This document shows positions 228 through 36,713 of a DNA stretch of 64,000 nt, in pieces. The stretch is from contig CAWJJT010000009.1 of assembly GCA_963843225.1 (NCBI GenBank), forward strand, positions 62,916 to 126,915. Direction: 5' to 3'. The stretch's first letter is position 1. The number at the start of each line of letters is the position of its first letter. The notes under the pieces are model-generated. The model had not been told where the DNA came from and did not search any database. It saw only the letters and a list, made by a program, of their open reading frames with translations. This DNA is from an uncultured Alphaproteobacteria bacterium. Lineage in GTDB: Bacteria; Pseudomonadota; Alphaproteobacteria; Rhizobiales; Xanthobacteraceae. The position numbers and the translations under genes were made by a program.

Positions 228-407
228 TGCCGATCTATCCGTTGCGAGGAGCCGTTTCGGGACACCAATATGGCACAGCGCGCCCGGGATTAAAGCCAGT
301 TGCCGTCCGATTGAGGCGGAAAAGGGAACTTCGGTGTGAAACCGGGCTTGGTGCTTGTGCGTATTTCACAAATCTTCGGCGTCTGAGGCGGTTAGCGGAT
401 TCTTTGC

Positions 408-2243: not shown

Positions 2244-2301
2244 CGGCCGACGTGCGCAGCCTCCTTCGAGAGACTGCGGCTTGCGGAATGAGCATCAGCG
2301 G

Positions 2302-3264: not shown

Positions 3265-3310
3265 CAGATTTGCAATGAAGCTTCCAAATGTCTCGCTTGT
3301 CGAACGAAAT

Positions 3311-3341
3311 GGATCGGTTCAGATTCAATCAGAACCGATCC
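3311..3341. repeat. Perfect 10-bp inverted repeat (GGATCGGTTC-11 nt-GAACCGATCC); possible small repeat/MITE remnant or terminator
   Basis: Read directly from sequence; next to the CTAG that supplies the stop codon of 3346-3936. Confidence 0.5.
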
Positions 3342-3345
3342 TGTT

Positions 3346-3936: not shown

Positions 3937-3978
3937 AGCTGGAATTTATGGGACGGCAACTGCCCCGCGGATGGAGTT

Positions 3979-4794: not shown

Positions 4795-4958
4795 GCGGGC
4801 AGGATACACCGTGGTCGCCGTGACGACCACTCCAATCGCGCGGTTTCGAGCGTTCGCCGGGCATTTGCGCGCCCGTCCTTGCAGGCGGCTGACCGGGAGG
4901 CCCTTGTAACAAGGGCATCGGAGCGCAAAGATCACCTTCTTCTCTCCGAAGGCATTCC

Positions 4959-6189: not shown

Positions 6190-6318
6190 ACACGCGGGAT
6201 CAGCGGGCATTTGTCGAGATCATTGATCGCGCGATGGCACGGCCCGGTTCTGGAATTGCGCCGCAAACCGGATAGGAACCTCTTGAAGATCGAACTTATC
6301 CGGATCAGAGATTTGTCC

Positions 6319-6951
6319 ATGCTGACTTTCGACCACCTCACCGTTGCCGCGCTGACGCTCGAACAGGGTGTCGCCCATATCGAACGCGCATTGGGCGTGG
6401 TGATTCCGGCCGGCGGAGCCCATCCGCTGATGGGCACACACAACCATCTCATGCGGCTGGGTGAGGGGGCTTTTCTTGAGTTGATCGCGCCCGATCCGGC
6501 GGTCACGCCGCAGCGGGTGCGCTGGTTCGGGCTTGACGATCCGGCCATGCGCAAAAGTCTTCAGGACTCGCCGCGGCTCGTCAATTGGGTGGCCCGCGTT
6601 CCCGATATCAGGCACGCGCTGGGCGCGATCGATGGCGCACAGGGTGAAGCCGTGCGCGTGACGCGCGGTGAGTTGTCGTGGCTGATCTCGGTGCCGCCGG
6701 ATGGCTCGTTGCCGTTCGATGGCGCCTTTCCCACGCTGATCGAATGGCCGCCCGGTCCGCATCCGTCGTCGCGCATGACGGATCTCGGCTGCCGCCTCAG
6801 CCGGCTTTCCATCGGGCATCCGCAAGGCGCCCGCCTGCATCAGGCGCTTGCGCCGGTGTTCTCCGATGACCGCGTCGTCATTTCGACGGAAGCGGCAACC
6901 AGACTCCGTGCGACGATCGACACGCCGGCTGGTCCGCGCGAGCTAAGCTGA
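6319..6951 (+). CDS. VOC / glyoxalase-like family protein
   Basis: FDHLTVA, GGAHPLMGTHNHL, FLELIAPDP, FPTLIEW. Confidence 0.85.
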   Translation: MLTFDHLTVAALTLEQGVAHIERALGVVIPAGGAHPLMGTHNHLMRLGEGAFLELIAPDPAVTPQRVRWFGLDDPAMRKSLQDSPRLVNWVARVPDIRHALGAIDGAQGEAVRVTRGELSWLISVPPDGSLPFDGAFPTLIEWPPGPHPSSRMTDLGCRLSRLSIGHPQGARLHQALAPVFSDDRVVISTEAATRLRATIDTPAGPRELS

Positions 6952-6989
6952 CAACATCATCGTTGCAACGACAATGCGGGGGAGGACAC

Positions 6990-7879
6990 ATGCGCAAAGT
7001 CTGGATCGAGGCGGCGCTCAACGGCACCTGGAGCCGCGCGATGCAGCCGGGCATTCCCGATACCATCGAGGCGATTGTCGCGGAGGGCATCGCGTGCGCG
7101 CGCGCCGGCGCCACCATCATCCACACCCATGCCTATGACGGCGGCGGCCCGCAGACTTACGACTGGCAGGTCTATGCGCGCATCATCGAGGGCATCGGGC
7201 GAAGGTGGACGTGCCGGTCTACCCGTCCTACCCGGCGTTCATGACGACGGGGAGCGATACCAGCCCGCTCGCCGATGTTACAGCCCGCTTCGCCCATATC
7301 GAGGCGCTGGCCGCGCGCGGCCTGCTGGAGTTCGCCATTGTCGACCCCGGCAGCGCCAATTTCAGCCGAACGAAGACGACGCCGACCGCAGCGCCGGCGG
7401 GCACCTACATGAATCCCGAAACCCATATCCGCTATGCGCTCGAGCATGCGGCGCGCCATGGTCTTCACCCGGCCTTCGCGATTTACGAGCCTGGCTTCGC
7501 GCGCGCCGGCGCAGCATTGGCGCGGGCGGCCGGCGTCAAGGCGCCGATCTATCGCCTGATGTTCTGCGAGGGGCTTGCCGTCGGCTTTCCGGCAAAGCCG
7601 TACGCGCTGGCGGCCTATGTTTCGCTGCTGGAGGAGGCTGTGGGCGCGGCGCCGTGGATGATCGCCGCCGTGAACGCCGATCTCCGTCCGCTGTTCGCCG
7701 AAACCATCGCGCGCGGTGGTCATATTCGCGTCGGGCTAGAGGACGCGCCGCTCGGCACCTCGACCAGCAATCTCGCTCTCGTCGAAGAGGCGGTGCGGAT
7801 CGTGCGCGATCACGGCGCCGAACCCGCCACGCCTGCGGAGATGCGGCTGGCGCTCGGCGGAATCGCCGGCGGCGGCTGA
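6990..7879 (+). CDS. Beta-keto acid cleavage enzyme (3-keto-5-aminohexanoate cleavage / DUF849 family; frameshift near 7200)
   Basis: IEAALNG, GATIIHTHA (HxH), GGHIRVGLED, SNLALVE; GGAGG RBS before ATG 6990. Confidence 0.85.
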
Positions 7880-8140
7880 CAAAACCGCTTTTGCGAGCGT
7901 ATGCCTGCGATGTCGGGCAAATAGCGCCGCATCACGATCGGGTGAATCGGCCAAAATGCAAAATTGTTCAAGGGGTTGTCATCATGTGACATTGCGCCGC
8001 CTCGAAACGTGTTGCGTTGCAACGGAGCTGATTTAGCCTGTCCCCATCGAAAACGTTCGGATTCGTTCAGCAGACTGCGGCGCAAGTTCGCCGCGGTGAG
8101 CGCTGACGGCTGACTGCATCCATGACTGGGGTCTGACTTG

Positions 8141-9343
8141 ATGAATGGAATTTATGCGCGCGCGGCTCTCGCTGCATTGGTGATGGCTGGTCTCGCGCCT
8201 GTTCTCGCGGGCTGCGACGAGGCCACGCCGGCCCTGGCGACAACCAAGGTCGAGCCGGAAGTCGGAATCATCACGGTGAAGTCGCAGCCGCGCGCAATGG
8301 TGCGCGAATTGCCGGGCCGCATCGCGTCCACCCGCGCCGCCGATGTGAGAAGCCGGGTTTCCGGCATCGTGGTCGAGCGGCTGTTCGAGCAGGGCACCGA
8401 GGTCAAGGCCGGCGAGGTGCTCTATCGCATCGACCCGAAGCCGTTCGAGGTCGAACTGCAATCCAACGAGGCGGCGCTGGCCAAGGCGACCGCGGCGTTC
8501 GATCTGGCCGCGCAGCATGCGAACCGGATCGCGACGCTGTACGGCCAGAAGGCGGTGTCGGAAGCCGAGAACGAAAAGGCCGTCGGCTCGATGCGTCAGG
8601 CACAAGCCGAGGTCGGCTCCCGCCAGGCCGACGTCGCAAGGGCGCGGTTGAATCTCGATTACGCGACCGTCCGTGCGCCGATCAGCGGCATCGTCGGTGC
8701 GGCACTGGTCACCGAAGGTGCATTGGTGGTGCAGAACGAAGCGACGAATCTTGCGACCATCCAGCAGCTCGATCCGATCTACGCCGACTTCACCCAGTCG
8801 GTGGCTGAAATGAACAGGTTGCGGCGCGCCTTCGACAATGGCGATCTCGACCGGATCTCGCCTGACGCGGCCAAGGTCCGGCTCGTGCTGGACGACGGAA
8901 CGGCCTATCCGACGCCCGGCAAGCTGCTGTTTTCGGAATCCAAGGTCGACGCCTACACCGGGCAGGTGACGCTGCGCGCGCAGTTTTCCAATCCGAAGCG
9001 CGAATTGCTGCCGGGCATGTATGTCCGCGTCCTGATCGAGCAGGGCGTCGATTCCGATGCGATCGCGATCCCGCAGCAGGCGATCCAGCGCGACGCCGGT
9101 GGCGGCAGCGGCGTGTTCGTGGTCAAGGACGACGGCCATGTCGCATCGCGCAGCGTCCGCACCGGCGCCATGCAGGACGGTCTCTGGCTGGTGAGCGAGG
9201 GACTGAAGGACGGCGATCGCGTGATCGTCGAGGGTTTCCAGAAATTCGTGCCCGGCGACAAGGTCAGGTCGCAGGCCTGGGTCGACGCCGACGCCTCGGT
9301 CGGTTCGTTGCCCGACCAGCAGATCACGCAGGCCGGCAGGTAA
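8141..9343 (+). CDS. RND efflux periplasmic adaptor subunit (AcrA/MexA family lipoprotein)
   Basis: Lipobox LAGC, ELPGR, VRAPISG, DPIYADFTQS, TGQVTLRAQFSNP, LLPGMYVRV. Confidence 0.93.
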   Translation: MNGIYARAALAALVMAGLAPVLAGCDEATPALATTKVEPEVGIITVKSQPRAMVRELPGRIASTRAADVRSRVSGIVVERLFEQGTEVKAGEVLYRIDPKPFEVELQSNEAALAKATAAFDLAAQHANRIATLYGQKAVSEAENEKAVGSMRQAQAEVGSRQADVARARLNLDYATVRAPISGIVGAALVTEGALVVQNEATNLATIQQLDPIYADFTQSVAEMNRLRRAFDNGDLDRISPDAAKVRLVLDDGTAYPTPGKLLFSESKVDAYTGQVTLRAQFSNPKRELLPGMYVRVLIEQGVDSDAIAIPQQAIQRDAGGGSGVFVVKDDGHVASRSVRTGAMQDGLWLVSEGLKDGDRVIVEGFQKFVPGDKVRSQAWVDADASVGSLPDQQITQAGR

Positions 9344-9348
9344 GTCGG

Positions 9349-12300
9349 ATGTCCAGCTTCTTTATCGACCGGCCGATCTTCGCCTGGGTCGTCGCGCTCT
9401 TCATCTGTCTGGTCGGCGCGATCGCGATACCGCTGCTTGCGGTGGCGCAATATCCGATCATCGCGCCGCCCTCGATCTCGATTTCCACCAGCTATCCCGG
9501 CGCGTCGCCGGAAAACCTCTACAACAGCGTGACGCGGCTGATCGAGGAGGAGCTGAACGGCGCCAACGGCATCCTGAATTTCGAATCCACCAGCGACTCG
9601 CTCGGGCAGGTCGACATCACGGCCAATTTCGTCCCGGGCACCGACACCGGCATGGCCTCGGTCGAAGTCCAGAACCGCATCAAGCGCGTCGAGGCGCGGC
9701 TGCCCCGCGCCGTGATCCAGCAGGGCATCCTGGTGGAGGAGGCGTCCAGCGCGGTGCTGCAGATCATCACGCTGCGGTCCACCGACGGCAGCCTCGACGA
9801 GGTCGGGCTCGGCGATTTCATGATCCGCAACGTGCTCGGCGAAATCCGGCGCATCCCCGGCGTCGGCCGCGCCACGCTCTATTCCACCGAGCGCTCGCTG
9901 CGGATCTGGATCGATCCCGCCAAGCTGGTCGGCTATGGCTTGACCGCCGATGACGTCACCAAAGCCATCAACGCCCAGAACGCGCAGGTCGCCTCGGGCA
10001 GCATCGGCGCCGAGCCGAGCACGCCGACGCAGCGGATATCGGCGCTCGTGCTGGTCAAGGGACAGTTGAGTTCGCCAGACGAATTCGGCGCGATCATCCT
10101 GCGCGCCAATGCGGATGGTTCGACCGTGCGGCTGCGCGACGTCGCGCGGGTCGAGGTCGGCGGCATGGGCTATCAATTCACCACCCGCCTCAACGGCAAG
10201 CCGACCGCGGGCCTCTCGGTGCTGCTGTCGCCGACCGGCAATGCGCTCGCGACCGCCGGCGCCGTCGAAGCCAAGATGAAGGAACTCTCCCGGTTCTTTC
10301 CCGCCAATGTCGCCTACGACATCCCCTACAACATCACGCCGGTCGTGAAGGCCTCGATCGAGAAGGTGCTGTCGACGCTGGTCGAGGCGGTGGTGCTGGT
10401 CTTCATCGTGATGTTCCTGTTCCTGCAGAACATCCGCTACACCCTGATTCCGACCATCGTGGTGCCGGTGGCGCTGCTCGGCACCTGTGCGACGCTGCTG
10501 ATCGCCGGCTTCTCGGTCAACATGCTGACGATGTTCGCCATGGTGCTGGCGGTCGGCATTCTCGTCGACGACGCCATCGTCGTCGTGGAAAACGTCGAGC
10601 GCATCATGGCGGAGGAGGGACTGCCGCCGAAACAGGCCACGCGCAAGGCGATGTCCCAGATCACCGGCGCCATCGTCGGCATCACGCTGGTCCTGATGGC
10701 GGTGTTCGTGCCGATGGCGTTCTTTCCGGGCTCGGTCGGCATCATCTACCGGCAATTCTCGGTGACCATGGTGGCCGCGATCGGCTTCTCGTCCCTGCTC
10801 GCGCTGTCGCTGACGCCCGCTCTGTGCGCGACGCTGTTGAAGCCGGTGACGGCAGGCCATGGTCATGCCCGCAAGGGCGTGTTCGGCGTCTTCAACCGCG
10901 GCCTCGATGCCCTGCGCAGCCGCTATGCGCGCACCGTCGGGCTGTCGCTCAACCGCACCGGGCGGCTGATGCTGATCTATGCCGCGCTGCTGATCGGGCT
11001 CGGCTGGGCGTTCGTCCGCCTGCCCGGCGGCTTCCTGCCGGTCGACGACCAGGGTTTCATCACCACCGACGTCCAGACGCCCTCCGATTCCTCCTACGCG
11101 CGCACCGAGGCGGCCGTGGAAGCGGTCGAGAAATATCTCGCCCGGCGCGCCGGAATCGACAACGTGACGTTCCTTACCGGCTTCAGCTTTTCCGGTCAGG
11201 GCATCAACACCGCGCAGGCCTTCATCACGCTGAAGGACTGGTCGGAACGGTCGAAAAAGGATTCGGCCGCGGCGATCGTGGCCGACATCAACAGCGATCT
11301 CGCCTCGATCCGCGACGCCAAGATTTCGGCGCTGCAGCCGCCGCCGATCGACAATCTCGGCAACTCCTCGGGCTTCAGCTTCCGCCTGCAGGATCGCGGC
11401 CAAAAGGGCTATCCGGCGCTGGCGAGCGCCGCCGACCGGCTGGTCGCCGACGCCAATGCGAGCCCGGTCCTGCAAAAGGTGTACATCGAAGGGCTGCCGC
11501 CGGCGCCGCAGGTGAGCCTCGTGATCGACCGCGAAAAGGCGGGCGCCTTCGGCGTCACCTTCGAGGACATCAACAACACCATCTCGACCAATCTCGGGTC
11601 GAATTACGTCAACGACTTTCCCAATCGCGGCCGCATGCAGCGGGTGATCGTTCAGGCCGACAAGGGCGGTCGCATGAGCGCCGACGACATCATGAACTAC
11701 AACGTCAAGAACAGCCGCGGCGTGCTGGTGCCGTTCTCTTCCTTTGCCTCGGTCGAATGGTCGAAGGGGCCGACGCAGATCGCGGGTTTCAACTATTATC
11801 CCGCCGTGCGCATCTCCGGCGAGGCCAAGCCGGGCTATACCAGCGGCGACGCCATCGCCGAGATGGAGCGGCTGGCGAACGGCTTGCCGCGCGGCTTCGG
11901 CTATGAATGGAGCGGGCAGTCGCTGCAGGAAAAGCTCTCGGGCTCGCAGGCGCCGTTGCTGCTCGCTCTGTCGGCGCTGGTGGTGTTCCTCTGCCTCGCC
12001 GCGCTCTATGAGAGCTGGACCATCCCGCTGGCGGTGTTGCTGACGGTGCCGCTCGGCATCTGCGGCGCGGTGCTGGCGGCGACCCTCCGGGGGCTGCCGA
12101 ACGACGTCTATTTCACCGTCGGCCTGATCACCATCATCGGGCTCGCCGCCAAGGACGCCATTCTCATCATCGAATTCGCCAGAGAGTTGCGTGCGCAGGG
12201 TAAGCCGTTGATCGAGGCGACGGTGGAAGCCTGCTCCTTGCGCATGCGTCCGATCCTGATGACGGGGCTCGCCTTTGTCTGCGGCGTGCTGCCGATGGTG

Positions 12301-12501
12301 GTGGCGAGCGGCGCCGGCGGCGCGAGCCAGCAGGCGCTCGGCACCAGCGTGATGGGCGGCATGATCGCGGTGGTGATCCTGGCGCTTCTGATGGTGCCGG
12401 TGTTCTTCGTCGCCGTGCAGCGGTTTTTCGCAGGCGACCGCGAGGCGGTGGAGAAGCCGGAAGCAACGCAGCCGCAGGCGTCGCCGGCTCCGATCCGATG
12501 A
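9349..12501 (+). CDS. RND efflux permease (HAE1, AcrB/MexB family)
   Basis: 1050 aa; FFIDRPIFAWV, GILVDDAIVVVENVER, LYESW, RMRPILMT. Confidence 0.96.
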   Translation: MSSFFIDRPIFAWVVALFICLVGAIAIPLLAVAQYPIIAPPSISISTSYPGASPENLYNSVTRLIEEELNGANGILNFESTSDSLGQVDITANFVPGTDTGMASVEVQNRIKRVEARLPRAVIQQGILVEEASSAVLQIITLRSTDGSLDEVGLGDFMIRNVLGEIRRIPGVGRATLYSTERSLRIWIDPAKLVGYGLTADDVTKAINAQNAQVASGSIGAEPSTPTQRISALVLVKGQLSSPDEFGAIILRANADGSTVRLRDVARVEVGGMGYQFTTRLNGKPTAGLSVLLSPTGNALATAGAVEAKMKELSRFFPANVAYDIPYNITPVVKASIEKVLSTLVEAVVLVFIVMFLFLQNIRYTLIPTIVVPVALLGTCATLLIAGFSVNMLTMFAMVLAVGILVDDAIVVVENVERIMAEEGLPPKQATRKAMSQITGAIVGITLVLMAVFVPMAFFPGSVGIIYRQFSVTMVAAIGFSSLLALSLTPALCATLLKPVTAGHGHARKGVFGVFNRGLDALRSRYARTVGLSLNRTGRLMLIYAALLIGLGWAFVRLPGGFLPVDDQGFITTDVQTPSDSSYARTEAAVEAVEKYLARRAGIDNVTFLTGFSFSGQGINTAQAFITLKDWSERSKKDSAAAIVADINSDLASIRDAKISALQPPPIDNLGNSSGFSFRLQDRGQKGYPALASAADRLVADANASPVLQKVYIEGLPPAPQVSLVIDREKAGAFGVTFEDINNTISTNLGSNYVNDFPNRGRMQRVIVQADKGGRMSADDIMNYNVKNSRGVLVPFSSFASVEWSKGPTQIAGFNYYPAVRISGEAKPGYTSGDAIAEMERLANGLPRGFGYEWSGQSLQEKLSGSQAPLLLALSALVVFLCLAALYESWTIPLAVLLTVPLGICGAVLAATLRGLPNDVYFTVGLITIIGLAAKDAILIIEFARELRAQGKPLIEATVEACSLRMRPILMTGLAFVCGVLPMVVASGAGGASQQALGTSVMGGMIAVVILALLMVPVFFVAVQRFFAGDREAVEKPEATQPQASPAPIR

Positions 12502-12547
12502 CCCGCAATTGCCGGGTCAACGCAGGGCAGCCCAATCCACGCCTCGA

Positions 12548-13555
12548 CTATCTGGATTTTCGAGGCGTCGGGCCGGCCCATTCCCGTCTTGCGATCTCGC
12601 GGAGATCGGACGGTGTGGCGCCGACATGGCGGCGGAACGCCCGATTGAAATAGGAGATATCGCCGAAGCCGTTTTCGTGAGCGATCTGTGCGATGTTCAG
12701 ATGGGCGTAACGCGGGTCAATCAGCATGCGCTGGACCCTGAGCAGGCGTTCGGTGAGCAGGAACGAGGAAAACGACGACCCCGCTTCCTCGAACAGTTTT
12801 CGCAGATAGCGCGATGAAATGCCGTGACGCGCGGCGATGCCCTCGGCGGAGAGATCGTTGTGGCCGAGCCGGCCGAGGATGTCGGATTTGAGTGCCGCAT
12901 ACCGCGCGGCCTTCGCGCCGCGCTGTCTGGCGAGTTCGGCATCGTCGCCGCGTGCACCGAGCGCGAGCGCGGCAAGATCGAAAATATGGGTCGACACCGC
13001 GTGGCCAATCTCGCGGTACTCCGATTCATCGCCGGTCTGCACAATATCCAGATATGCGGTCAGCAGACGCAATGCCGCGTTACCGCTCGGAATCGGCCGG
13101 CCAAAGGCCGACGCGTAGTTCGGAACACATGCGGCAAGGGTTGGCCGCGACAAGGCAAGGGTGATGAAACTTCCGTCGGAATGCAACGTGCTGGCCGAGG
13201 GAGCATCGGACGCCAGCACGCTGGCACTGCCGATTCCGCCGAGCAACTGCTTGCCGAATTGCGTGGCGTTGGCAACGCCGCTTCGCAATATGCTGATCGC
13301 GACGATGTCCCGACCGCGTCCGGCCAGCTCCGGCGTGACGCTATAGCGCGCGGGGGATCGCGAGCCGGTCGCGATGCCGACATTCGGCAGAAGACGAAAC
13401 GTGACGTCGGCATGGAACGGCGTATCGCCGATGGGTTCGATGTCGACGTTGAAGATCCCCCGGCCGTACACCTCGCGCCAGGTGGCCAGACGTTTGTCTT
13501 CGGGAATATCCCGGGTCGAAATCCGGACACGTTGAAGCGGTCGAATATCCTGCAT
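12548..13555 (-). CDS. AraC family transcriptional regulator
   Basis: C-terminal double HTH: ISSRYLRKLF, IAQIAHENGFGDISYFNRAFRRHVGATPS. Confidence 0.9.
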   Translation of the reverse strand: MQDIRPLQRVRISTRDIPEDKRLATWREVYGRGIFNVDIEPIGDTPFHADVTFRLLPNVGIATGSRSPARYSVTPELAGRGRDIVAISILRSGVANATQFGKQLLGGIGSASVLASDAPSASTLHSDGSFITLALSRPTLAACVPNYASAFGRPIPSGNAALRLLTAYLDIVQTGDESEYREIGHAVSTHIFDLAALALGARGDDAELARQRGAKAARYAALKSDILGRLGHNDLSAEGIAARHGISSRYLRKLFEEAGSSFSSFLLTERLLRVQRMLIDPRYAHLNIAQIAHENGFGDISYFNRAFRRHVGATPSDLREIARREWAGPTPRKSR

Positions 13556-13860
13556 GGCCCTTTAGCCCTCGGGAGCGATGTTCATACCCGGCGGTAACCC
13601 CAGACCACTTAAATTCTTCCTTCTGGTTGCGCCATTGCACTTTGGAAGCCGTCCATCGGCGCCCTGGTGCCGAATAATCCAATCCTCTGTTCCGATGCGG
13701 ACAAGTTGCGCCCTTCGATCTGTGTCGATCGGGTCACAGGCTTGTCCGAACTGCCCAAAGGACCGAAATGGCCGATCGCCCGTTCCGGTCCGACCAAGAC
13801 AGATGCGCCGCCACGTCCGATACAGCCGCAGTCGAACCTGCAACTGACCGGAGACTCATC

Positions 13861-14721
13861 GTGCGGATTTCAAAATTGATCGTTGCCATCAGCGCGACGC
13901 TTGGCCTCAGTGCAGCATCTGCCGCAGACTTGCTCGAGCGCAGCTATACCAAGGCGCCGCCTCCGATTGCCGCAGTCTACGATTGGACCGGCTTCTACGT
14001 CGGCGGCAATGTCGGTTACGGTTGGGGTGGTAACACCGACCCCAGTTTGAGTTTCTTCAACCCGCTCAACCGGGCAAACATCGGCGTGTTCCTGACCGCC
14101 GGAGAGTTTCCGGGAACGACCAGCACTGGAAATCTGTTCCCGAACCTTAATCCGAGCGGTGCATTTGGCGGCGGCCAGATTGGCTACGACAAGCAATTCG
14201 GCGCCTGGCTGCTCGGCGTGGTGGCCGATATTCAAGCCTCCGACTTCAGGGCCAGCAGCCTTGTAACCACGCCGGCGGTGGCCACCGGAGCAAATCTCGA
14301 CGAAAGCCTGTCGGCGAAAATCGACTGGTTCGGCACCGTGCGCGGCAAGGTCGGCTTCGCGGCCGATGACTGGTTGTTCTATGGCACCGGCGGTCTCGCT
14401 TATGGCGGAACCAAGAGCGCCATGGGCTTCGCCTGTACGCCCGGCGGCACCGGTTGCAGCGGCATTGCGCTTGCCGGCACCGCGTCGGAAACCAGGGTCG
14501 GTTGGGCGGCGGGTGTCGGCGTCGCGAAAGCGTTTGGCAACTGGAATATCGGGGTCGAATATCTTCACATCGACCTCGGCCGCTCCTCCGTCACCGCGGT
14601 CGACACCACCGGAAATCTCCTGTCGACGACAACCGTCACCGAGAGCCAGCGATTTGCCGAGGACATGGCCCGGCTGACCGTGAACTACAAATGGGGTCCG
14701 TCGCTGGTCGCCAGGGACTGA
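13861..14721 (+). CDS. Outer-membrane beta-barrel protein (Omp25/RopB-like porin family)
   Basis: GTG start after GGAG; signal peptide ending ASAADL, YDWTGFYVGGNVGYGWG, WFGTVRGKVG, YGTGGLAYG, C-terminal VNYKW. Confidence 0.88.
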   Translation: MRISKLIVAISATLGLSAASAADLLERSYTKAPPPIAAVYDWTGFYVGGNVGYGWGGNTDPSLSFFNPLNRANIGVFLTAGEFPGTTSTGNLFPNLNPSGAFGGGQIGYDKQFGAWLLGVVADIQASDFRASSLVTTPAVATGANLDESLSAKIDWFGTVRGKVGFAADDWLFYGTGGLAYGGTKSAMGFACTPGGTGCSGIALAGTASETRVGWAAGVGVAKAFGNWNIGVEYLHIDLGRSSVTAVDTTGNLLSTTTVTESQRFAEDMARLTVNYKWGPSLVARD

Positions 14722-14728
14722 TCCCTGT

Positions 14729-15524
14729 TCACTTTCCCAGCGGCTTGAGGATCTTCACCAGTTCGGCATGGATCGCTTCATTGCCGCAGATCACGTTGCC
14801 GCGTCTTGAGCGCATCGTCATTGCCGTCGAAGCCGGACACGGTGCCGCCGGCTTCGCGCACCATGATCTGGCCCGCCGCCATGTCCCAGGCATGCAGGTT
14901 GCGTTCCCAATAGCCATCGAGGCGGCCGGCGGCGACAAAGGCCATGTCGAGCGAGGCGGCGCCGAAGCGGCGCAGGCCCGCCACCTTGGCCTGGATCTCG
15001 CTCATCTCGACGCGCGCCAGCTCGAGATCGCCGCGGCCGATATGCGGCAGGCCGCAGGCGATCACGCAGTCACTGAGCTGGCGGCGGCCGGCGACCCGCA
15101 GCCGCTGGTCGTTGAGGAAGGCGCCCTTGCCGCGCTCGGCGATATAGAGCTCGTCATTGGCGGGATTGTAGATCACGCCCGCGATGATGGTGCCCTCGCG
15201 CTGCAGGCCGATCGAAATCGCAAATTGCGGAATGCCGTGCAGGAAGTTGGTGGTGCCGTCGAGCGGATCGACGATCCAGGTGTGGGTCTTGTCCTGGCCT
15301 TCGCGCGCGCCGCCTTCCTCGCCGATGAAGCCGTAGCCCGGCCGGGCCTTGGTGAGGTCCTCCAGCAGCATCTGCTCGGCGCGCTTGTCGGCGAGGCTGA
15401 CGAAATTGGCCGGTCCCTTCAGCGACACCTGAAGGTTCTCGATCTCGCCGAGGTCGCGTTTGAGGCTGCGGCCGGCGCGGCGCGCGGCTTTGACCATGAC
15501 GTTGATAAGGGCTGAATGCAGCAT
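14729..15524 (-). CDS. suhB: Inositol monophosphatase family protein SuhB (frameshift near 14800)
   Basis: WIVDPLDGTTNFLHG, RRFGAASLD, WDMAAG; C-terminus GNVICGNEAIHAELVKILK in ORF ending 14729. Confidence 0.9.
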
Positions 15525-15600
15525 GATCTCGGCTCAAGGCGACCTGAGCGTCAGGTCTGGGATGGGAATGGCGGGATTGGCCCCAGTGGGTGCCCTGCGG

Positions 15601-16660
15601 TTACCGTGGCGTCAAGACCGGATTGCCGAACCATTTGCGCGCGCCGGCCTCCGCCTTGGCGCGGTCGTCCGCGCTCAGGTGGGCCAGTTCCTCGTCGAGC
15701 ATCGGGATCGCCTTTCCCGGCGGTTTTGGCGATCAGGTGCCATTTGAGGCCCTCGACCTTGTCCATCGGCGCGCCCTGGCCGGTGACCAGCACGCGGGCG
15801 AGACGGTTCTGCGCGATCGGGCTGTTCTGCCGGGCGGCCTTGCGCAACAGCGCCACCGCGGCGGCCTCGTTCTTCGGCGTGCCGGTGCCGTTGAAGAGCG
15901 CGATGGCGTATTCGACCTCGGCGTCGACATTGTCGGCGATCGAGGCCGCCTGCAGCAGCCGGACCGCCTTCTCGGTGTCCTTCGGCACGCCGGTGCCTTC
16001 CTTGTAGAAGGTCGCGAGCGCGTATTGCGCTTCCGGGTTGCCGGCATCGGCGGCTTGCCGGAGCAGTTCGGCGGCGCGCTTGACGTCCTGCGGCAGCGAC
16101 TGTCCGTCGAGATAGAGCAGCGCCAGATTATAGGCCGCCTTCGCGTTGCCGAGTTTCGCGGATGACGCCAGCAGCTTGACGGCCTCGTCGCGGTTGGCCG
16201 CGCCGCCGCGGCCCTCCAGCCGCATCATGGCCAGCGCGAACATGGCTTCGCGGTCGCCGGCGTCGGCGGCGCGCTTGTACCAGCCGGCGGCCTTGACATA
16301 GTCGCGTTTGGTGCCGAGCGCATTGGCGTAGAGTTCGCCGAGCATGGTCATCGCCTTGGGATCGCCGGTCGCCGCGCGCTGGTTCGCGAGATCGAACGAG
16401 GTCTTGTACATGCCGCGCTGATAGGCGCCGTAAACCAGATCGGCATTGGGATCGTCGGGTGCGGCGTGGCGGCCGGCGTCGGCCTCGACCTTCGGCGTCG
16501 CCGCCGGAGCCGGCGGCTTTTTGGCGGGCGGTTTGGGTTTCGGCGCCGCGGCCGGCTTGGCGGGCTCGGCGGCGGGAGGCGTCAGCGGGACCTGCGCCGC
16601 GGCGCTTGCCGCCCAGATCAGGCAGCACAGCAGGATCGATATGGGAGCGAGGCGCTGCAT
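15601..16660 (-). CDS. Sel1-repeat (SLR/TPR) exported protein (frameshift near 15700)
   Basis: Signal peptide, Pro-rich linker, repeated A...LG.LY..G.G...D...A..WY..AA..G units. Confidence 0.85.
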
Positions 16661-16669
16661 TTTTTCGCG

Positions 16670-17349
16670 CTAACCCTGCTCGGCCCGGGCTTTTCCGGCA
16701 GCTCCGATGTGCCTGCCGGATCGCCTGCTCGACGTCCTTCAATGCCGCCACCGCGCCGCGCGGATCGGCCCAGATGAAATCGCCGACCAGGACGAAATCC
16801 GCGCCGTTGGCGGCGAACGCGTAGGCTTCCTCGCGCGAGGCGGCAAAGCCGACGCAGGGCGGCTCGAACAATTCGGCCCACCATTCGAGCCGCTCGGCGA
16901 TTGCCTCGGCCGACGGCCGCTGGCCCTTCGCGTCGGGCTCGCCGAACAGGACGTAGTCGGCGCCGAGTTCGCCCGCGCTCATCGAATCGTGCCGCGTCGC
17001 GCAGGCCCCCGACGCCGGCGATGCGGTCGGGCTTCAGCGACGGCAGCGCGTCCTCGAGCGCCGCGATGCCGCTCAGATGCGCGCCGTCGGCGCCGCCGCG
17101 CGCGACCAGTTCGACATGACCGTCGAGCAGCAGCGCCGCGCCGGCATTCTGGATCACGGGCGCCAGCGCCTTGATCCGCGAGATCATGGTGCGCTGGTCG
17201 GTCGGCTTGAGCCGCACCAGCACCGCGGCGACATCGGCTGACGCGAGCAGGCCGGGCAGGCCCGCGATCAGCGGTGCGGGATCGTCCACCTCCGATGTCG
17301 CAAGATAAAGACGCGGCACGGGGCGCTGCGGAGCAGGTTGAGTGGCCAA
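16670..17349 (-). CDS. Thiamine-phosphate synthase (ThiE/TenI)-like protein, divergent (frameshifts near 17000 and 16710)
   Basis: RLYL, GADGAHL, AGELGADYVLFG, WWAELFEPPCV, GADFV. Confidence 0.75.
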
Positions 17350-17350
17350 T

Positions 17351-18377
17351 CTATGCCGCCTTCTTTTCCAGCTCGGCCTTCCATTCGCCCCTGGTCGCGA
17401 GCGAATTCATCCGCGCGCGGTGGATGAAGGCGCGCTGGCCGGCGGCGATATTCTCGGGCTTGCCCGACCACGCCTTTTGCGGCGCCGCCTGCAGCGCGCG
17501 GCCGTAGGAAAAGGTGAGGGGCCAGGGCAGGCCGCCGATGCGGTGCATGGCGTCGAGATGCGCGGTCGCCTCCTCGTCGGATTGTCCGCCGGAGAGGAAG
17601 GCGATGCCGGGCACCGCCGCCGGGACGCAGGCCTTCAAGAGCCGGATGGTCTTCTCCGCGACTTCCTCGACGGAAGCCTGCTTCGGGCTCTTCTTGCCGG
17701 AGATCGCCATGTTGGGTTTCAGGACCATGCCTTCCAGCGCGACGCGCTGCACCCGCAATTCCTGGAAGGTCTTGTTGAGCACGCGGCTCGTGACGTCGAA
17801 GCAGCGGTCGATATCGTGGTCGCCGTCCATCAGCACTTCCGGCTCGACGATCGGAACGATCTGCGCGGCCTGGCAAAGCGCGGCGTAGCGCGCCAGCGCG
17901 TGGGCGTTGACGTGGATCGCGGTCATGGTCGGAATGCCGCTGCCAGATATCGATCACCGCGCGCCATTTCGCGAACCGCGCGCCGCGCTCGTAATATTTC
18001 TTCAGCCGCTCGGCGAGCTTGTCGAGCCCGACGGTGACGAGTTCGCCGGGGCATTGCGGCAGGGCTTGCGTTCCCTCGTCGACCTTGATGCCGGGGATCG
18101 CGCCGGATTGCTCGATCAGCCTGACCAGCGGCGTGCCGTCCTTCGCGTTCTGCCAGATGGTCTCGTCGTAGAGGATGACGCCGGAAATGTACTTGCTCAT
18201 CGCCTCGGTGGAGCGGAACAGCATCTCGCGATAGTCGCGGCGCGTCTCCTCGGTCGACGCCACGCCGATGGCGTCGAAGCGCTTCTTGATGGTGCCGGTG
18301 GATTCGTCGGCGGCCAGGATGCCCTTGCCGGGGGTGACCATGGCGAGGGCGACCTTGTTGAGATCGGCGAGATTCAT
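17351..18377 (-). CDS. Class I fructose-bisphosphate aldolase (frameshift near 17945)
   Basis: KGILAADES, GVILYDET, GIKVD, FAKWRAV, VPIVEPEV, LKPNM, FLSGGQS, TFSYGRALQ. Confidence 0.93.
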
Positions 18378-18442
18378 CGATGCCTCCTCGAGAGCAGGGA
18401 CGCTTTGCAAGTCAAACTAGACCGTTCTCGGGCAAGACCCAA

Positions 18443-18502
18443 GAAAACGCCAGCAAAACAGCGAAGAAAACAGCCAATAAAACGGCCAACAAAGCCGTCA
18501 AA
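18443..18502. repeat. Five imperfect 12-bp tandem units with A-tracts
   Basis: GAAAACGCCAGC AAAACAGCGAAG AAAACAGCCAAT AAAACGGCCAAC AAAGCCGTCAAA. Confidence 0.6.
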
Positions 18503-18569
18503 AAGCCGGCCCGGAAACTCGCCGGGAAGGGAACAGCGAGACCGGCGGCCCGTTCAGGTCGGAGGTCGC

Positions 18570-19637
18570 TTATGCGACTTTCGGATCAAGCTCGCCCTTG
18601 ACGTAACGCTTGGCCATCTCGGCCGTGGTCAGGACCTTCTTGATCTTGCTGGCCTGGCCGGCGGTATTGAACTCCTGCAGCCGCTGCTTGCACAGCTTGG
18701 CCATCGCTTCCATCGCCGGCTTGAGATATTTGCGCGGGTCGAATTCTTCCGGATTGTCCTTCAGCACCTTGCGGATCTGCCCGGTCATCGCCATGCGGTT
18801 GTCGGTGTCGATGTTGATCTTGCGCACGCCGTTCTTGATGCCGCGCTGGATCTCGGAAACCGGCACGCCCCAGGTCGGCTTCATCTTGCCGCCATTGGCG
18901 TTGATGATGTCCTGCAGGTCCTGCGGCACCGAGGACGAGCCGTGCATCACCAGATGCATGTTGGGCAGCTTGCGGTGGATTTCCTCGATCACGTTCATGG
19001 CGAGGATGTCGCCGTCCGGCTTGCGGGTGAATTTGTAGGCGCCGTGCGAGGTGCCCATCGCGATCGCCAGCGCGTCGACCTTTGTCTCCTTGACGAACTT
19101 CACGGCCTCGTCGGGATTGGTGAGCAACTGGTCGTGGGAGAGCTTGCCTTCGGCGCCGTGGCCGTCTTCCTTGTCGCCCATGCCGGTCTCCAGCGAGCCG
19201 AGCACGCCGAGTTCGCCTTCCACCGAAATGCCGCCGAGATGGGCCATGTCGGTGACGGTCTTGGTGACGCCGACATTGTAGTCCCAGTCGCCGGGCGTCT
19301 TGCCGTCGGCCTTCAGCGAGCCGTCCATCATCACGGAGGTGAAGCCGGCCTGGATCGCGGTCATGCAGGTGGCGGGTTCGTTGCCGTGATCGAGATGCAC
19401 GCAGACCGGGATCTGCGGATAGATTTCGGTCACCGCGTCCATCATGTGCTTGAGCATGACGTCGTTGGCGTAGGAGCGCGCGCCGCGCGAGGCCTGGATG
19501 ATCACGGGCGCGTCGAGCGCGGAGGCGGCCTCCATGATCGCCAGCGCCTGCTCCATGTTGTTGATATTGAAGGCCGGCACGCCGTATTCGTGTTCCGCCG
19601 CGTGGTCGAGCAATTGACGCAACGTAATGCGAGCCAT
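18570..19637 (-). CDS. fba: Class II fructose-bisphosphate aldolase (CbbA-like subtype)
   Basis: [58 protein letters not shown]. Confidence 0.96.
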
Positions 19638-19686
19638 GAGTTCCGTTCTCCGCGTTGGGGCCGCTAGCCCGATATGAAATAAAAAT

Positions 19687-20883
19687 TCAGCCTATCTTTA
19701 AAACTTCGACGCCGGGCAAGGGTTTCCCCTCCATCCATTCAAGAAACGCGCCGCCCGCGGTCGAGACGTAGCTGAAATCCTGGGCCACCCCGGCCTGGTT
19801 CAGCGCCGCCACCGTGTCGCCGCCGCCGGCGACCGAAATCAGCTTGTGCGCCTTGGTCCGCGCCGCCGCGTGCTTCGCCGCCGCCACGGTGCCGCGGTCG
19901 AACGGCGTCATCTCGAAGGCGCCGAGCGGGCCGTTCCAGACCAGCGTCGCGGCGTCGTCGATCGCGGCATGGATCCGCGCGATCGAGCGCGGGCCGACGT
20001 CGAGGATCATGCCCTCGGGCGGGATCGCATCGAGGCCGTAGGCGTGCGACGGCGCGTTGGCCGCGAATTGAAAGGCGACCACGGCGTCGACCGGCAGGAT
20101 GATGGCGCAATTGGCGGCTTCCGCCTTCTCGACGATCCGCAACGCGGTCGCCGCCAGATCCTTCTCCGCCAGCGACTTGCCGATGCCGATGCCCTGCGCG
20201 TGCAGGAACGTGTTGGCCATGCCGCCGCCGATCACCAGCGCATCGACCTTGCGCACCAGATTTTCCAGAAGATCGATCTTGGTCGAAACCTTGGCGCCGC
20301 CGATGATCGCGATCACCGGCTTGGCCGGGTGCTCCAGCGCCTTGCCGAGCGCGTCGAGTTCGGCCTGCATGGTGCGGCCGGCATAGGCCGGCAGGCTGTG
20401 GCCGAGGCCTTCGGTCGAGGCATGCGCGCGATGCGCCGCCGAGAAGGCGTCGTTGACCCAGATGTCGCCGAGCTTGGCCAGCTCGGCGACGAAGGCGGGA
20501 TCGTTCTTTTCTTCCTCTTTGTGGAAGCGGGTGTTTTCGAGACACAGGATGTCGCCGTCCTTCATCGCGGCGACCGCCGTTTGCGCCGATGCGCCGATGC
20601 AGTCGTCGGCGAAGCCGACCGGCTTGCCGATCACCAGCGACAGTTCCGCGGCGACCGGTTTCAGCGACTCCTTGGGGTCGCGCCCCTTGGGCCGGCCGAA
20701 ATGCGCGAGCAGGATGACCTTGCCGCCCTTGGCCGAAATCTCGGTGATGGTGGGCGCGATGCGCTCCAGCCTTGTCGCGTCGGTGACGCGGCCATTTTCC
20801 ATCGGCACGTTGAGATCGACGCGCAGCAGCACGCGCTTGCCCTTCACGTCGACGTCATCGAGGGTGCGGAATGTTTTTGTCAT
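19687..20883 (-). CDS. pgk: Phosphoglycerate kinase
   Basis: [48 protein letters not shown]. Confidence 0.97.
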
Positions 20884-25364: not shown

Positions 25365-25524
25365 GCGAAGCTGTGTCGCGCGTCAGGAGCCATATATCCC
25401 CGGGGCCTTATCGATCCTTCAGGGAACTGTCCCTGGCCAGGTCCGTGGACTTGGTCACATGGTGCCCACCTACTTTCGTAGGGAACTCCGGGATCGAGCG
25501 CTCCAACGGCCATCGCGGCTTCGC
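25365..25524 (+). ncRNA. ssrS: 6S RNA
   Basis: ~160 nt with complementary ends (GCGAAGC...GCTTCGC), internal CCCCGGGG / CTCCGGG pairing and GGTGCCCACC motif; canonical position between zapA and 5-FTHF cyclo-ligase; T-run follows. Confidence 0.85.
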
Positions 25525-25532
25525 ACTTTTTT

Positions 25533-33876: not shown

Positions 33877-34773
33877 ATGGACCAGGACAATTTCGTACAG
33901 GAAGAAGCCCGGAATAAAATCGATCAGGATATCAACGAGCGCATTCGGGTTCACCAGGCCAACATCGCAAGGTTGGCCTCGGCGCGACAAAGCGCCCGAA
34001 CGCTCGGGGCCGCGATCAAGAATCGGCCCCTGGTGATGCTGGCGCAAGGCGATTCCTGGTTCGATTATCCCTTGACCGGAAACGGATTGCCACTTGTGGA
34101 CACCGATGTGATTGCGCAACTGCGCCGCATCGGCGCCATGCCGCCCACGATCCTCAATCTCGCCCATCATGGCGAGGCGGCCGTCGACGAGATGTCCTTG
34201 CCCAAGCAGGAGCGCATGATCAGCGTTCTGCGCGATCCCTCGAACTGGATCGACGGCAAGCCCGATGCCATCCTGTTCTCGGCCGGCGGAAACGATATTG
34301 CCGGTGACCAGTTTTGTATTTTCCTGGACTTCAACGACGGACATTCGCCGGGGCTCAATCAGGACCGCTTCAGCAAGGCGCTTGGCTCGATCGAGGCCTG
34401 CTATCTGGAATTGTTCACCTTGCGCGACCGTATCGCTCCGGACGTCCCGATCTTCGGCCATTGCTATGATTTTCCGATTCCCAACGGCGCGCATCCCGCC
34501 TGCGCCGGACCGTGGCTGAAGCCGTCGCTCGACTTCTGCAACTGGCCGGTCACCAACGGCCGGCAGATCGTTCATGACGCGCTGGCGGCCTTTCGCGCGA
34601 TGCTGGTGCGTCTCGCCGGTGATGCCGGCAACAAATTTCACTTGGTGGATACCCAGGGCGTTCTGGCGGATGCCGAGTGGGCCAATGAGCTCCATCCTCA
34701 GCCCGGGGGCTTTACGAAAATCGCCCAGAAGTTCGCGGACGCGCTCTCGGCCAATTTCGCCGCGCAGGGTTAG
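33877..34773 (+). CDS. SGNH/GDSL hydrolase-like protein
   Basis: Block I GDSW, block III GGND, block V ELHP; GGGAG RBS. Confidence 0.75.
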   Translation: MDQDNFVQEEARNKIDQDINERIRVHQANIARLASARQSARTLGAAIKNRPLVMLAQGDSWFDYPLTGNGLPLVDTDVIAQLRRIGAMPPTILNLAHHGEAAVDEMSLPKQERMISVLRDPSNWIDGKPDAILFSAGGNDIAGDQFCIFLDFNDGHSPGLNQDRFSKALGSIEACYLELFTLRDRIAPDVPIFGHCYDFPIPNGAHPACAGPWLKPSLDFCNWPVTNGRQIVHDALAAFRAMLVRLAGDAGNKFHLVDTQGVLADAEWANELHPQPGGFTKIAQKFADALSANFAAQG

Positions 34774-34914
34774 CCCTCGATCGTTCCGCCGACCGGATTT
34801 CACGCCTCGCCCCGGATCTGCCCGAACCCGACGGGCAAATCAGTCGAATCCCTGTCCAGCCCCTTTCGAAAAAATATTTTCGTTCACATCCGATGCAAAT
34901 CACCTTCATGTCCC

Positions 34915-35345
34915 CGCCCGTCCGGTCCCGAAAGAGGGGCGTTGGCCATCGTCACGAACGTTGGGATCGGATGCGGTGGACGCGGTTGCATCAGGCGCGC
35001 GAGAGCGTGCGGACGAATGATGCGGGCGCGGACGGCGAAGTCGTGTGGTCCTGACGCCCCGGTGCTGGCGTCAAGTTCGCGGGAAGCGATTCCCGCAGGC
35101 GACGGTGGCAAGAAAGCCGGTCACCGGGGAGAGCACGAAGGAAACCGTTAAAACCATTGCGCAGGGAAGGCCGGACTGCTTCCGCTGAACCTGTATGCTC
35201 GTGTGCGGACTTCCTTGTGCCTATTGCACACGAGACCGCGGGTGCAGCGCGCACCCGGCTTTCCCTGCGCCCTCTTGTTTTGGAGGGACAATGTTCATGC
35301 ATAGCCCGGGCGCATCGCGCCGCGAGAACGCGGACGCTTGTCTTG
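34915..35345 (+). repeat. Large structured non-coding element (candidate ncRNA or multicopy intergenic repeat); boundaries approximate
   Basis: Nested stems including 35159-35174 with 35255-35270 (16 bp, one G-U), GNRA-capped hairpins at 34995-35010 and 35079-35096; no credible ORF; lies between convergent genes. Confidence 0.65.
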
Positions 35346-35366
35346 TCGCGCCTGCACGTCAGCCCG

Positions 35367-36713
35367 CTACTGCGCCGTCTGCTTGCGCAGCTCCGCCACA
35401 TCCTGAGGCGTGAGCCGCGATCCCCTGGTTCCGAAACGCGCGGTGACGTAGTTGGCGACGGCGGCGATCTCGACATCGGAATAGGCGTTGCCGAAGGCGG
35501 GCATCGAGAGCGCGCCGTCGGTATGGCGGCTGGTGCCCGAGATCACGATCTGGGCGACGTTGGTGCCGGCGGGATCGTTGACCGCCCACGCGCCGGTCAG
35601 CGTAGCGAAGGGCGAGATCGAACTTTCGCCGGTCCAGCCGTGGCAACTGACGCAGGCGCCTTCGAACACCAGCTTGCCGCGCGGATCCAGCACGCCGTGT
35701 CCCGCCTTGGGCGATGCCGGCGCCGGCGGCGCCAGCGTCGCCGGCAGATCGGCCGACGCAATAGCAGGCACGCTGCGCAGATAGGCCACCATGGCGCGGA
35801 TGTCCTCGGGCGCGAACTGGCTGAAGCTGCGATCCACGGCCTCGCCCATCGGCCCCGACGCGGAGCCGTGACCGGTGGCGTGTCCGGTCGAGAGGTAGGC
35901 GATCAGATCCTCATCTTTCCAGCCGCCGATGCCGGTGGTCTTGTCCGAGGTGATGTTGAAGGCGCGCCAGCCTGCCGTCAGCGCGCCGGCAAATTTCTTT
36001 CGATTGTCCAGCCCGAGCGCCAGGCTGCGCGGCGTGTGGCATTCGCCGCAATGCGCCAGCGCCTCCGCAAGATAAGCGCCGCGGTTCCACTCCGGCGTCT
36101 TCGAGGTATCCGGCTGAAAGCGCGTGTCCGGATTGAACAGCGCCGACCAGAAGCCCATCGCCCAGCGCTGGTTGAACGGAAACGCCAGCGTATTGGTGGG
36201 CGCCACCGCGTGCACCGGCGGCAGGCTGAACAGATAGGCCTTGATCGCCAGCGCGTCCGCATCGGTGATGTAGGTGTAGGAGGTGTAGGGCATGGCCGGA
36301 TAGAGCCGCGCGCCGTCACGGCGCACGCCGCGATGCATCGCGTTGAGGAAATCCTGGTCGCTGTAATTGCCGATGCCGGTTTCCCTGTCGGGCGTGATGT
36401 TGGTCGAGTACAGCATGCCGAACGGCAGGCTGAAGCCGAGGCCGCCGGCATACTCCTTGCCGCCCTGCGAGGTGTGGCAGACCATGCAGTCCGCCGCCTT
36501 CGCCAGATAGGCGCCGCGCTCGATCGGGCTCGCCTTGGCGAGCGCCGCCGGGACGCCGGTCGGATCGCCGGCCTTGTAATCCGCCAGCGCGACCTTCGGA
36601 CCGTCGGCGAACGCCATCGGGCCCGGGCCGCGGATGAACCAGACCCCGACCACGAGCGCCACCACCGCGATCGCGATGGCGCTGAGGAAAATGCGGCGCG
36701 CGGCCGGGCTCAT
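35367..36713 (-). CDS. Tri-heme cytochrome c subunit (gluconate/aldehyde dehydrogenase type)
   Basis: Three CxxCH motifs (CMVCH, CGECH, CVSCH), NITPD, LYPAMPY, N-terminal TM anchor; ATG overlaps upstream stop. Confidence 0.92.
   Translation of the reverse strand: MSPAARRIFLSAIAIAVVALVVGVWFIRGPGPMAFADGPKVALADYKAGDPTGVPAALAKASPIERGAYLAKAADCMVCHTSQGGKEYAGGLGFSLPFGMLYSTNITPDRETGIGNYSDQDFLNAMHRGVRRDGARLYPAMPYTSYTYITDADALAIKAYLFSLPPVHAVAPTNTLAFPFNQRWAMGFWSALFNPDTRFQPDTSKTPEWNRGAYLAEALAHCGECHTPRSLALGLDNRKKFAGALTAGWRAFNITSDKTTGIGGWKDEDLIAYLSTGHATGHGSASGPMGEAVDRSFSQFAPEDIRAMVAYLRSVPAIASADLPATLAPPAPASPKAGHGVLDPRGKLVFEGACVSCHGWTGESSISPFATLTGAWAVNDPAGTNVAQIVISGTSRHTDGALSMPAFGNAYSDVEIAAVANYVTARFGTRGSRLTPQDVAELRKQTAQ

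Follow-up and report, generated by a model that had tools for sequence, protein, structure and literature searches.

A gap between two convergent genes of an alphaproteobacterial genome of Bradyrhizobium type contains one copy of a dispersed repeat, and we consider it probable (about 0.6) that the copies form a new RNA gene family, whose highly structured products are transcribed independently and whose members multiply as DNA cassettes. We infer a function for the RNA itself. A preliminary description, made from the letters of the sequence, had proposed an uncharacterized large structured RNA recurring as a dispersed repeat, and this proposal is now supported by covariation, by G-U asymmetry, by copy number and taxonomic range, and by RNA contigs limited to the core of the repeat.

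Genomic location and distribution of the cassette

The window (the whole stretch of DNA that was analyzed, 64,000 nucleotides) belongs to a source assembly (G000) of 6.58 Mb in 18 contigs, which is 80% complete. The repeat unit extends from about 34824 to 35345, with a conserved, transcribed core at 34911-35287, and the stretch under study fills the 593-bp gap between the two convergent genes. The upstream ORF (298 aa, + strand, 33877-34773) showed a weak GDSL-lipase-like match below the Pfam cutoff and, at E <= 1e-40, matched nothing in 60 other genomes of the genus, thereby placing the cassette at the edge of an accessory gene. The downstream gene encodes a 936-aa molybdopterin-oxidoreductase/cytochrome c fusion and ends at 35367 from the opposite direction.

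Searches with BLAST and an nhmmer profile identified 55 cassette copies in the source genome, every one with a full-length core, and the profile search found no truncated or decayed copies among them. Fifty-four copies spanned positions 1-372 of the core profile. In the 55th copy (G000 C3:533430-534049), about 210 nt are inserted between profile positions 133 and 170, within the variable arm. The window copy was 70-81% identical to the other copies of the source genome, and the closest paralogue pairs reached 96.6% identity. Conservation along the cassette was patchy, with near-invariant blocks alternating with variable stems. In most copies the core is accompanied by a 5' leader (34850-34910) and by a 3' module (35288-35345), and a small palindromic unit lies farther to the left.

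Each of five relatives contained at least 39 copies, and the family was present in 23 of 24 sampled genomes of the genus, a tally that counts the unpublished genome G015 (22 of 23 without it; no other claim rests on this genome). The recurrence in Bradyrhizobium intergenic regions, which the preliminary description had mentioned, is real by the copy search. Diverged copies occurred in 13 of 62 genera of the same GTDB family. Those fetched from other genera matched the whole core, and their extra length came only from the expansion of two arms. For an order-wide search we used a covariance model of the central domain (R1), which matched two of three other sampled genomes of the same GTDB family. 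No match to R1 appeared in 147 genomes representing about 60 further families of the order, which were searched with the stricter filters of Infernal. Plasmid records yielded one partial match to the cassette and phage records yielded none.

Secondary structure and covariation

The fold was examined in an alignment of 47 sequences: 30 paralogues, 4 sequences that occupy the same site in other species, and 13 copies belonging to other genera. RNAalifold predicted the same architecture from the 30 paralogues and from all 47 sequences. The architecture comprises 75 base pairs in 12 helices, and 97.7% of the 3,521 cells in the 47-sequence alignment were paired. Compensatory changes were found at 32 pairs, with 193 cells changed on both sides, and several pairs showed three to five pair types; pair 508/617 in the long 3' stem showed five (U-A, C-G, G-C, A-U, and G-U). 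None of 500 shuffled controls reached any of the five measures, and pairing fell to 33-51% when the partner columns were slid by 1 to 3 positions. Covariation, which had been named as a check on the RNA reading, is supported by the 32 compensatory pairs that no shuffle equaled.

The fold also distinguished the two strands, with 97.7% of cells paired on the + strand and 86.7% on the opposite strand. The alignment held 412 G-U or U-G cells but 26 A-C or C-A cells, indicating that the fold works on the + strand. The earlier argument for selection at the RNA level, which had rested in part on mismatches that are G-U on one strand, is supported by the same counts.

The 5' domain (34919-34973, + strand) is formed by helix P1, in which 34919-34928 pair with 34964-34973 and 6 of 10 pairs showed compensatory change. 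P1 encloses the invariant blocks GAGGGGCG (34934-34941) and CGUCACG (34950-34956). The central domain (34975-35158, + strand) consists of helices 3 to 9 and is the part covered by model R1. Its closing helices pair GGUGG at 34975-34979 with CCAUU at 35154-35158 and CGC at 34981-34983 with GCG at 35028-35030. The segments which had been described as purine-rich linkers are not linkers, since GCACGA, CCG, and CCAUU in these places are the 3' strands of the long-range helices closing the central domain. Within it lie a variable arm (34987-35024) and a four-way junction, in which UCGUGU (35041-35046) pairs with GCACGA (35133-35138) and UCCU (35049-35052) pairs with GGGA (35127-35130). Three hairpins extend from the junction, at 35053-35072, at 35079-35096 (variable, and larger in other genera), and at 35103-35126, all on the + strand.

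The 3' domain (35159-35270, + strand) comprises helices 10 to 12, with a long stem joining 35159-35172 to 35257-35270. It carries the hairpin CUCGUGU/ACACGAG (35198-35234), whose loop of 15 to 17 nt is almost free of G and rich in C, U, and A, and the hairpin GGGUGC/GCACCC (35240-35256). The loop at 35205-35225 varies between copies around a CACUACC-like motif. The tail (35268-35287, + strand) combines the invariant GCGCCCUC with a local CCCUC/GAGGG hairpin. As judged from complementarity, CCCUCU of the tail could instead pair with AGAGGG at 34933-34938, and both segments are invariant.

All stems named in the preliminary description were located at their positions, and most are kept with compensatory changes in the 47 related copies, above chance. 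TGACGCC/GGCGTCA (35052-35073) and GCGGGAA-GCGA-TTCCCGC (35079-35096) were found in place, as were CTCGTGTGC/GCACACGAG, GGTGC/GCACC, and CCCTC/GAGGG. An inverted-repeat search recovered the 16-bp long-range stem between 35159-35174 and 35255-35270 with 94% complementarity. The hairpin GCGCGC-GAGA-GCGTGC (34995-35010), nested in GCATCA (34988-34993)/TGATGC (35018-35023), is present, but it is an extension of the variable arm with an occupancy of 3 of 54 copies, that is, a private GNRA hairpin of the window copy and not a general part of the fold.

Long unpaired blocks were invariant as well, among them GAGGGGCG, CGUCACG, GACGA, GUGUGG, and GGGGAGAGCACGAAG. Such blocks may represent tertiary or protein contacts.

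Comparison with Rfam, tRNA, and protein-coding sequences

We then compared the stretch with known families. At gathering thresholds, Rfam 15 gave no family in the stretch, and in E-value mode over 34700-35450 the best matches had E values of 1.9 and 3.3 (15-16 bits against thresholds of 76-100), which is the level of chance. This absence of an Infernal match in Rfam 15 agrees with the uncharacterized status claimed previously. The further suggestion of a ribozyme-like RNA is not borne out, since no self-cleaving or intron family was matched. Elsewhere in the window, the 6S (SsrS) RNA gene at 25365-25525 (+ strand, 76.5 bits) was the sole Rfam match above threshold.

A tRNA-like gene was rejected, as ARAGORN made no tRNA or tmRNA call. 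Protein coding was also rejected: 74 of 88 distinct indels were not multiples of three, and the shadow ORFs had no Pfam match. Neither Rfam 15 nor the searchable literature, whose coverage is incomplete, yielded a description of the family.

RNA contigs of the family in public libraries

Public sequencing runs were searched for the stretch, and 24 runs from 16 studies contained 15-24% of its sampled words; 14 of them are recorded as RNA, the majority being metatranscriptomes of soil. One metatranscriptome from each of four studies (soil 2018, wood decay 2020, soil 2021, and plant 2025) was examined by assembled contigs, which show neither strand nor ends; runs with small word shares outside this set (X5-X18) do not serve here to indicate habitat. 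Each run contained 158-429 matching contigs. In all four runs the contigs covered 34911-35287, and the summed depth over the leader and the 3' module was 0-3.7. The depth over the leader was zero in three runs and 0-2.3 in the fourth (X2). Conservation in the leader and the 3' module is comparable to that of the 5' helix, yet RNA contigs left both nearly uncovered.

Summed depth pools many paralogues and species and is inflated at conserved blocks, which recruit more contigs; read in this way, it peaked at 35027-35084 and 35114-35171, in the central four-way junction. Across the four runs it was 1,268-83,186 at 35027-35055 and 184-7,202 at 35114-35171, and it was 41-1,264 over most of the 5' domain (34940-34997). 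The depth of the 3' domain was 2,400-20,000 in one run versus 10-440 in two others. One contig of exactly 140 nt covered 35029-35168. Depth thus varied 100- to 1,000-fold among domains in a ratio that depended on the sample, which argues for RNA rather than contaminating DNA. The unequal depth of the domains suggests processing into fragments of unequal stability.

In the source genome, the abundant segments occur within family copies alone. A comparison of the copies with the LSU loci of four genomes gave no match except to an unrelated flanking REP. A 23S rRNA fragment or intervening sequence was rejected as the source of the depth, as the segments are confined to the family and show no similarity to the four LSU loci.

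Leader, 3' module, and left-hand repeat

The leader (34850-34910, + strand) has a column conservation of 0.73-0.92 in the alignments and resembles a promoter. It contains a conserved TGTCCAGCCCC, an AT-rich UP-like tract at 34864-34882, and a conserved GCAAATCACC at 34894-34903. A -10-like hexamer lies 8 to 10 nt before the first helix and reads TATNNT in other genera and, more weakly, TTCATG in the window copy. RNA contig coverage begins exactly at the start of the first helix, with the hexamer immediately upstream. In a subset of copies, a 16-nt insertion creates a CTTGAC box 17 nt from the hexamer. A strict sigma-70 scan of the window copy gave no consensus promoter, and for this reason we speak of a putative promoter.

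The 3' module (35288-35345, + strand) is present in most copies and consists of an AU-rich linker and a conserved hairpin at 35305-35326. The hairpin showed compensatory G-C to C-G changes (alignment pairs 595-602 with 611-619). The module may be a terminator that is removed from the transcript, or it may form an end structure at the DNA level.

The left-hand small repeat unit AACCCGACGGGCAAATCAG (34824-34849, neither strand assigned) is an accessory module of most copies. According to the family alignment and the boundaries of duplicates, it occurs in either orientation or as a hairpin pair, and its CCCGACGGGCA has 39 matches genome-wide. In tables S7 and S10 of the supplements on strain USDA 110 (PMC4842269), as far as these are accessible, the unit's CCGTCGGGCAAATCAC lies in the predicted promoters of the mapped transcription start sites 6728642 and 6722241 (minus). 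In the same accessible part of the supplements, the short leader motif matched other repeats only. The left-hand repeat may itself carry promoter activity.

Placement, duplication, and turnover of copies

All 54 copies placed by BLAST were intergenic. Genes were called on both sides of 49 of them; 18 of these lay in convergent gaps, which were enriched, and 5 in divergent gaps, which were depleted. The copies had no fixed orientation relative to neighboring genes, and in the relative G223 a rough hand count, with the origin assumed near position 1, gave no obvious co-orientation with replication. When ORFs within 3.5 kb of the 54 copies were clustered, no shared family appeared beyond common paralogues. 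A linked nuclease, reverse transcriptase, or transposase gene, for which a search had been suggested, was not found beside the copies.

In recent duplicate pairs (90-96.6% identity), the shared sequence begins 56-109 nt ahead of the core and ends 41-60 nt beyond it. This unit of about 470-540 bp includes the promoter-like leader together with the core, which argues for copying at the DNA level. The ends of eight recent duplicate pairs were inspected and showed no consistent inverted ends, flanking direct repeats, or target duplications. The flanks of duplicates are mosaics of other repeats. Directly 3' of about half the copies, for example at G000 C3:382700-382900, lies a palindromic REP of about 80-100 bp (CGTCATTGCGAGC...GCTCGCAATGACG), whose GTCATTGCGAG has 116 matches genome-wide; its pairing with the cassette may reflect an insertion preference.

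Among 20 species, 4 have a copy in the same orientation downstream of the conserved 936-aa gene, and the closest relative lacks one. The gap beyond this gene could not be aligned between species, and the sites compared yielded no clean pair of filled and empty states. In cassette-free species (loci L045 to L048 and L051), the gap contains other long palindromic repeats (GTCGTCCCCGCG...GGGACCCATA...GTCCGGGACGAC), and several unrelated repeat families share it as a hotspot. A second shared locus has conserved flanks, and three relatives also have a copy there. The flanks of locus L002 were not conserved in five relatives. At both shared loci the copies fell into different clades of the family tree, and the nearest relative of a source-genome copy in another genome was at a different locus.

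Private substitutions were rare, with 65 across 54 copies and 336 columns. Those in paired positions kept 7 pairs and broke 10, and these events are few. Variants of the 5' and 3' domains combined in many ways across copies. The family therefore evolves as a recombining, turning-over set of cassettes, as judged from these sequence comparisons. Such turnover would leave every copy intact and is compatible with a host gene family and a selfish element alike.

Proposed explanation and alternatives

We propose that the AT-rich, promoter-like leader at 34850-34910 drives + strand transcription from about 34911. The transcript of about 375 nt would form three folded domains: on the 5' side, a helix containing an invariant internal loop; in the middle, a four-way junction that long-range helices close; and on the 3' side, a stem of 14 to 16 bp with two hairpins, one of which exposes the loop that lacks G and is rich in C, U, and A. 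Cleavage probably occurs in the AU-rich linker, ahead of the 3' hairpin, and is probably followed by further processing, with the central junction domain as the most stable product. Many invariant unpaired nucleotides amid freely covarying stems and length-variable arms suggest that the RNA acts in trans as a folded particle. Most likely it would scaffold or bind a conserved protein within a ribonucleoprotein and would not act by simple base pairing. The gene would spread and be replaced as a DNA cassette of about 470-540 bp comprising leader, core, and 3' hairpin, and exchange of segments between copies by recombination would keep all copies intact and mosaic. The features expected of a structured non-coding RNA gene, namely covarying helices, wobble asymmetry, and RNA contigs limited to the core, were all observed, the last in assembled contigs. 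We know of no precedent for a host needing 55 paralogues, and this counts against the host-gene reading.

The cassette is also short (about 0.5 kb), gene-less (non-coding), and multicopy (55 copies), as MITEs are. We regard it as rather unlikely, though deserving of weight, that the cassette is a selfish, non-autonomous DNA element (MITE-like or a REP mosaic) mobilized by a transposase encoded elsewhere, with a fold that serves transposition, for example, through single-stranded DNA hairpins, and RNA as a by-product. Such an element would account for dozens of copies that are all intergenic, enriched in convergent gaps (18) and depleted in divergent ones (5), and for the sharp boundaries of recent duplicates. 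The uneven presence of a copy at the orthologous site (4 of 20 species), the occupation of one locus by different subfamilies in different species, flanks crowded with other small repeats, and a conserved, covarying 3' hairpin outside the RNA-covered part point in the same direction. The source genome also has a Y1 transposase gene. However, transposition constrains the ends of an element, whereas here 12 internal helices and long invariant unpaired blocks are maintained across genera over 375 nt; the inspected duplicates showed neither terminal inverted repeats nor target duplications in any consistent form; no truncated or decayed copies were found in the source genome; plasmids gave one partial match and phages none; and RNA abundance was domain-specific and sample-dependent. 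The sole Y1 transposase is moreover flanked by its own, different GTAG-type REPs. This REPtron (G000 C2:152300-152900) consists of a RAYT-type ORF of about 180 aa (152300-152830), the single Y1_Tnp gene of the genome, with inverted GTAGCCCGGATG...CCGGG hairpins on both sides which are not part of the cassette. A RAYT-mobilized REP or BIME was consequently rejected, as these GTAGCCCGGATG-type REPs are unrelated to the cassette.

Mobility that depends on the RNA, through a SINE-like retroelement or a stand-alone guide or scaffold RNA (omega- or bridge-like) for a nuclease or recombinase elsewhere, appears improbable. The strongly conserved RNA scaffold, the many copies, and the abundant RNA would suit it, as would the analogy with HEARO and IscB-IsrB omega RNAs and with Alu, and the source genome has one TnpB-like zinc-ribbon match, located elsewhere. 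The duplicates, however, include 56-109 nt upstream of the transcribed part, which a transcript-derived copy would lack, and the 80%-complete source genome gave no RVT_1 match. The RNA-mediated mobility suggested in the preliminary description is disfavored on these two grounds. Neighboring genes are not recurrent, the Rfam models for HEARO and group II introns had no match, and neither RNA end has a hypervariable guide-like segment; the variable loop is constrained in composition. A HEARO or IscB-IsrB omega RNA was accordingly rejected (no RF02033 match, no recurrent adjacent ORF), as was a group II intron or retroelement such as a retron or SINE-like element (no RVT_1, no intron model match, and an upstream leader in the duplicates). 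It seems similarly doubtful that the family consists of base-pairing regulatory RNAs in which the 3'-domain loop would pair as a seed with purine-rich stretches of mRNA. Many seeds in alphaproteobacterial sRNAs are C/U-rich loops, and the loop at 35205-35225 is exposed on a covarying stem, almost free of G, and variable between copies around its CACUACC-like motif. Against a seed, the loops have no CCUCC-type anti-Shine-Dalgarno core, a scaffold of about 375 nt with invariant junctions far exceeds what a seed needs, and the central junction, not the 3' domain, was the most abundant part in three of the four runs. An RNA gene family spreading as a DNA cassette is the reading that we prefer.

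A stronger form of the preferred reading is offered tentatively, at somewhat less than even odds: the RNA would be among the most abundant non-ribosomal transcripts of Bradyrhizobium-type soil bacteria, made from at least 40 to 55 recombining copies per genome, and would form the core of a ribonucleoprotein or an RNA-only assembly like those of ROOL and GOLLD.

Significance and comparison with known systems

Bradyrhizobium and its relatives rank among the most common bacteria of soil, and the principal symbionts of soybean belong to this group. In these genomes the unannotated RNA family occupies about 25-30 kb each, and hundreds of family contigs, with summed depths reaching tens of thousands, were present in the four metatranscriptomes. 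Because the family is missing from Rfam, its copies are left blank or miscalled as hypothetical proteins. If the RNA serves the host, it would add a new class of large RNA, with abundant natural covariation on which structural studies could draw; if the cassette is selfish, it would be an unusual mobile element carrying an RNA under strong constraint. Should the proposal of an abundant ribonucleoprotein or RNA-only assembly be true, the family would be a multicopy RNA gene system without bacterial precedent and not a decaying transposon. Cultured, genetically tractable carriers exist, so the question of host versus selfish function is directly testable.

Br-REP1 and Br-REP2 of Bradyrhizobium are palindromes of 20-40 nt (Hahn et al. 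2016, PMC5082802). Like the cassette, they occur in the same genomes, in intergenic regions, and often between convergent genes (PMC5082802). They differ from it in sequence, and Br-REP-type hairpins adjoin several copies outside the core. HEARO (RF02033), which is related to IS200/IS605, resembles the cassette RNA in its length of about 300 nt, its multi-helix fold with conserved junctions, and its often many dispersed copies, and it was likewise discovered by comparative genomics before its function was known. In contrast to the cassette RNA, HEARO lies directly beside a nuclease ORF and has a guide at one end; the cassette RNA has no free guide segment, and its copies have their own promoter-like leader.

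The analogy with SINEs such as Alu lies in many dispersed, structured small-RNA-like genes whose fold is selected and whose copies turn over. SINEs move through RNA by means of a LINE reverse transcriptase and have an internal promoter, whereas no reverse transcriptase was found in the source genome and the upstream leader of the cassette is copied as well. The bcr1 element of the Bacillus cereus group, the enterobacterial ERIC, and the Correia element of Neisseria are 100-160 bp long and mostly form one long hairpin; they end in inverted repeats flanked by target duplications, and their transcription usually starts in neighboring genes. The cassette shares with them a gene-less intergenic nature, dozens to hundreds of copies, stable RNA folds, transcripts, and proximity to other repeats. 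It differs from them in that no consistent inverted ends were found among the inspected duplicates and in its core of about 375 nt, its 12 covarying helices, its invariant junctions, and its own leader.

The RNAs GOLLD, ROOL, OLE, and raiA resemble the cassette RNA in being several hundred nucleotides long, ornate, and multi-domain, with strong covariation and high expression, and they too had no known function when discovered. They occur in one or a few copies per genome or prophage and in other phyla. In contrast, the cassette RNA, which did not match their Rfam models, is present in at least 40 to 55 chromosomal copies per genome and is restricted, among the genomes sampled, to one alphaproteobacterial family.
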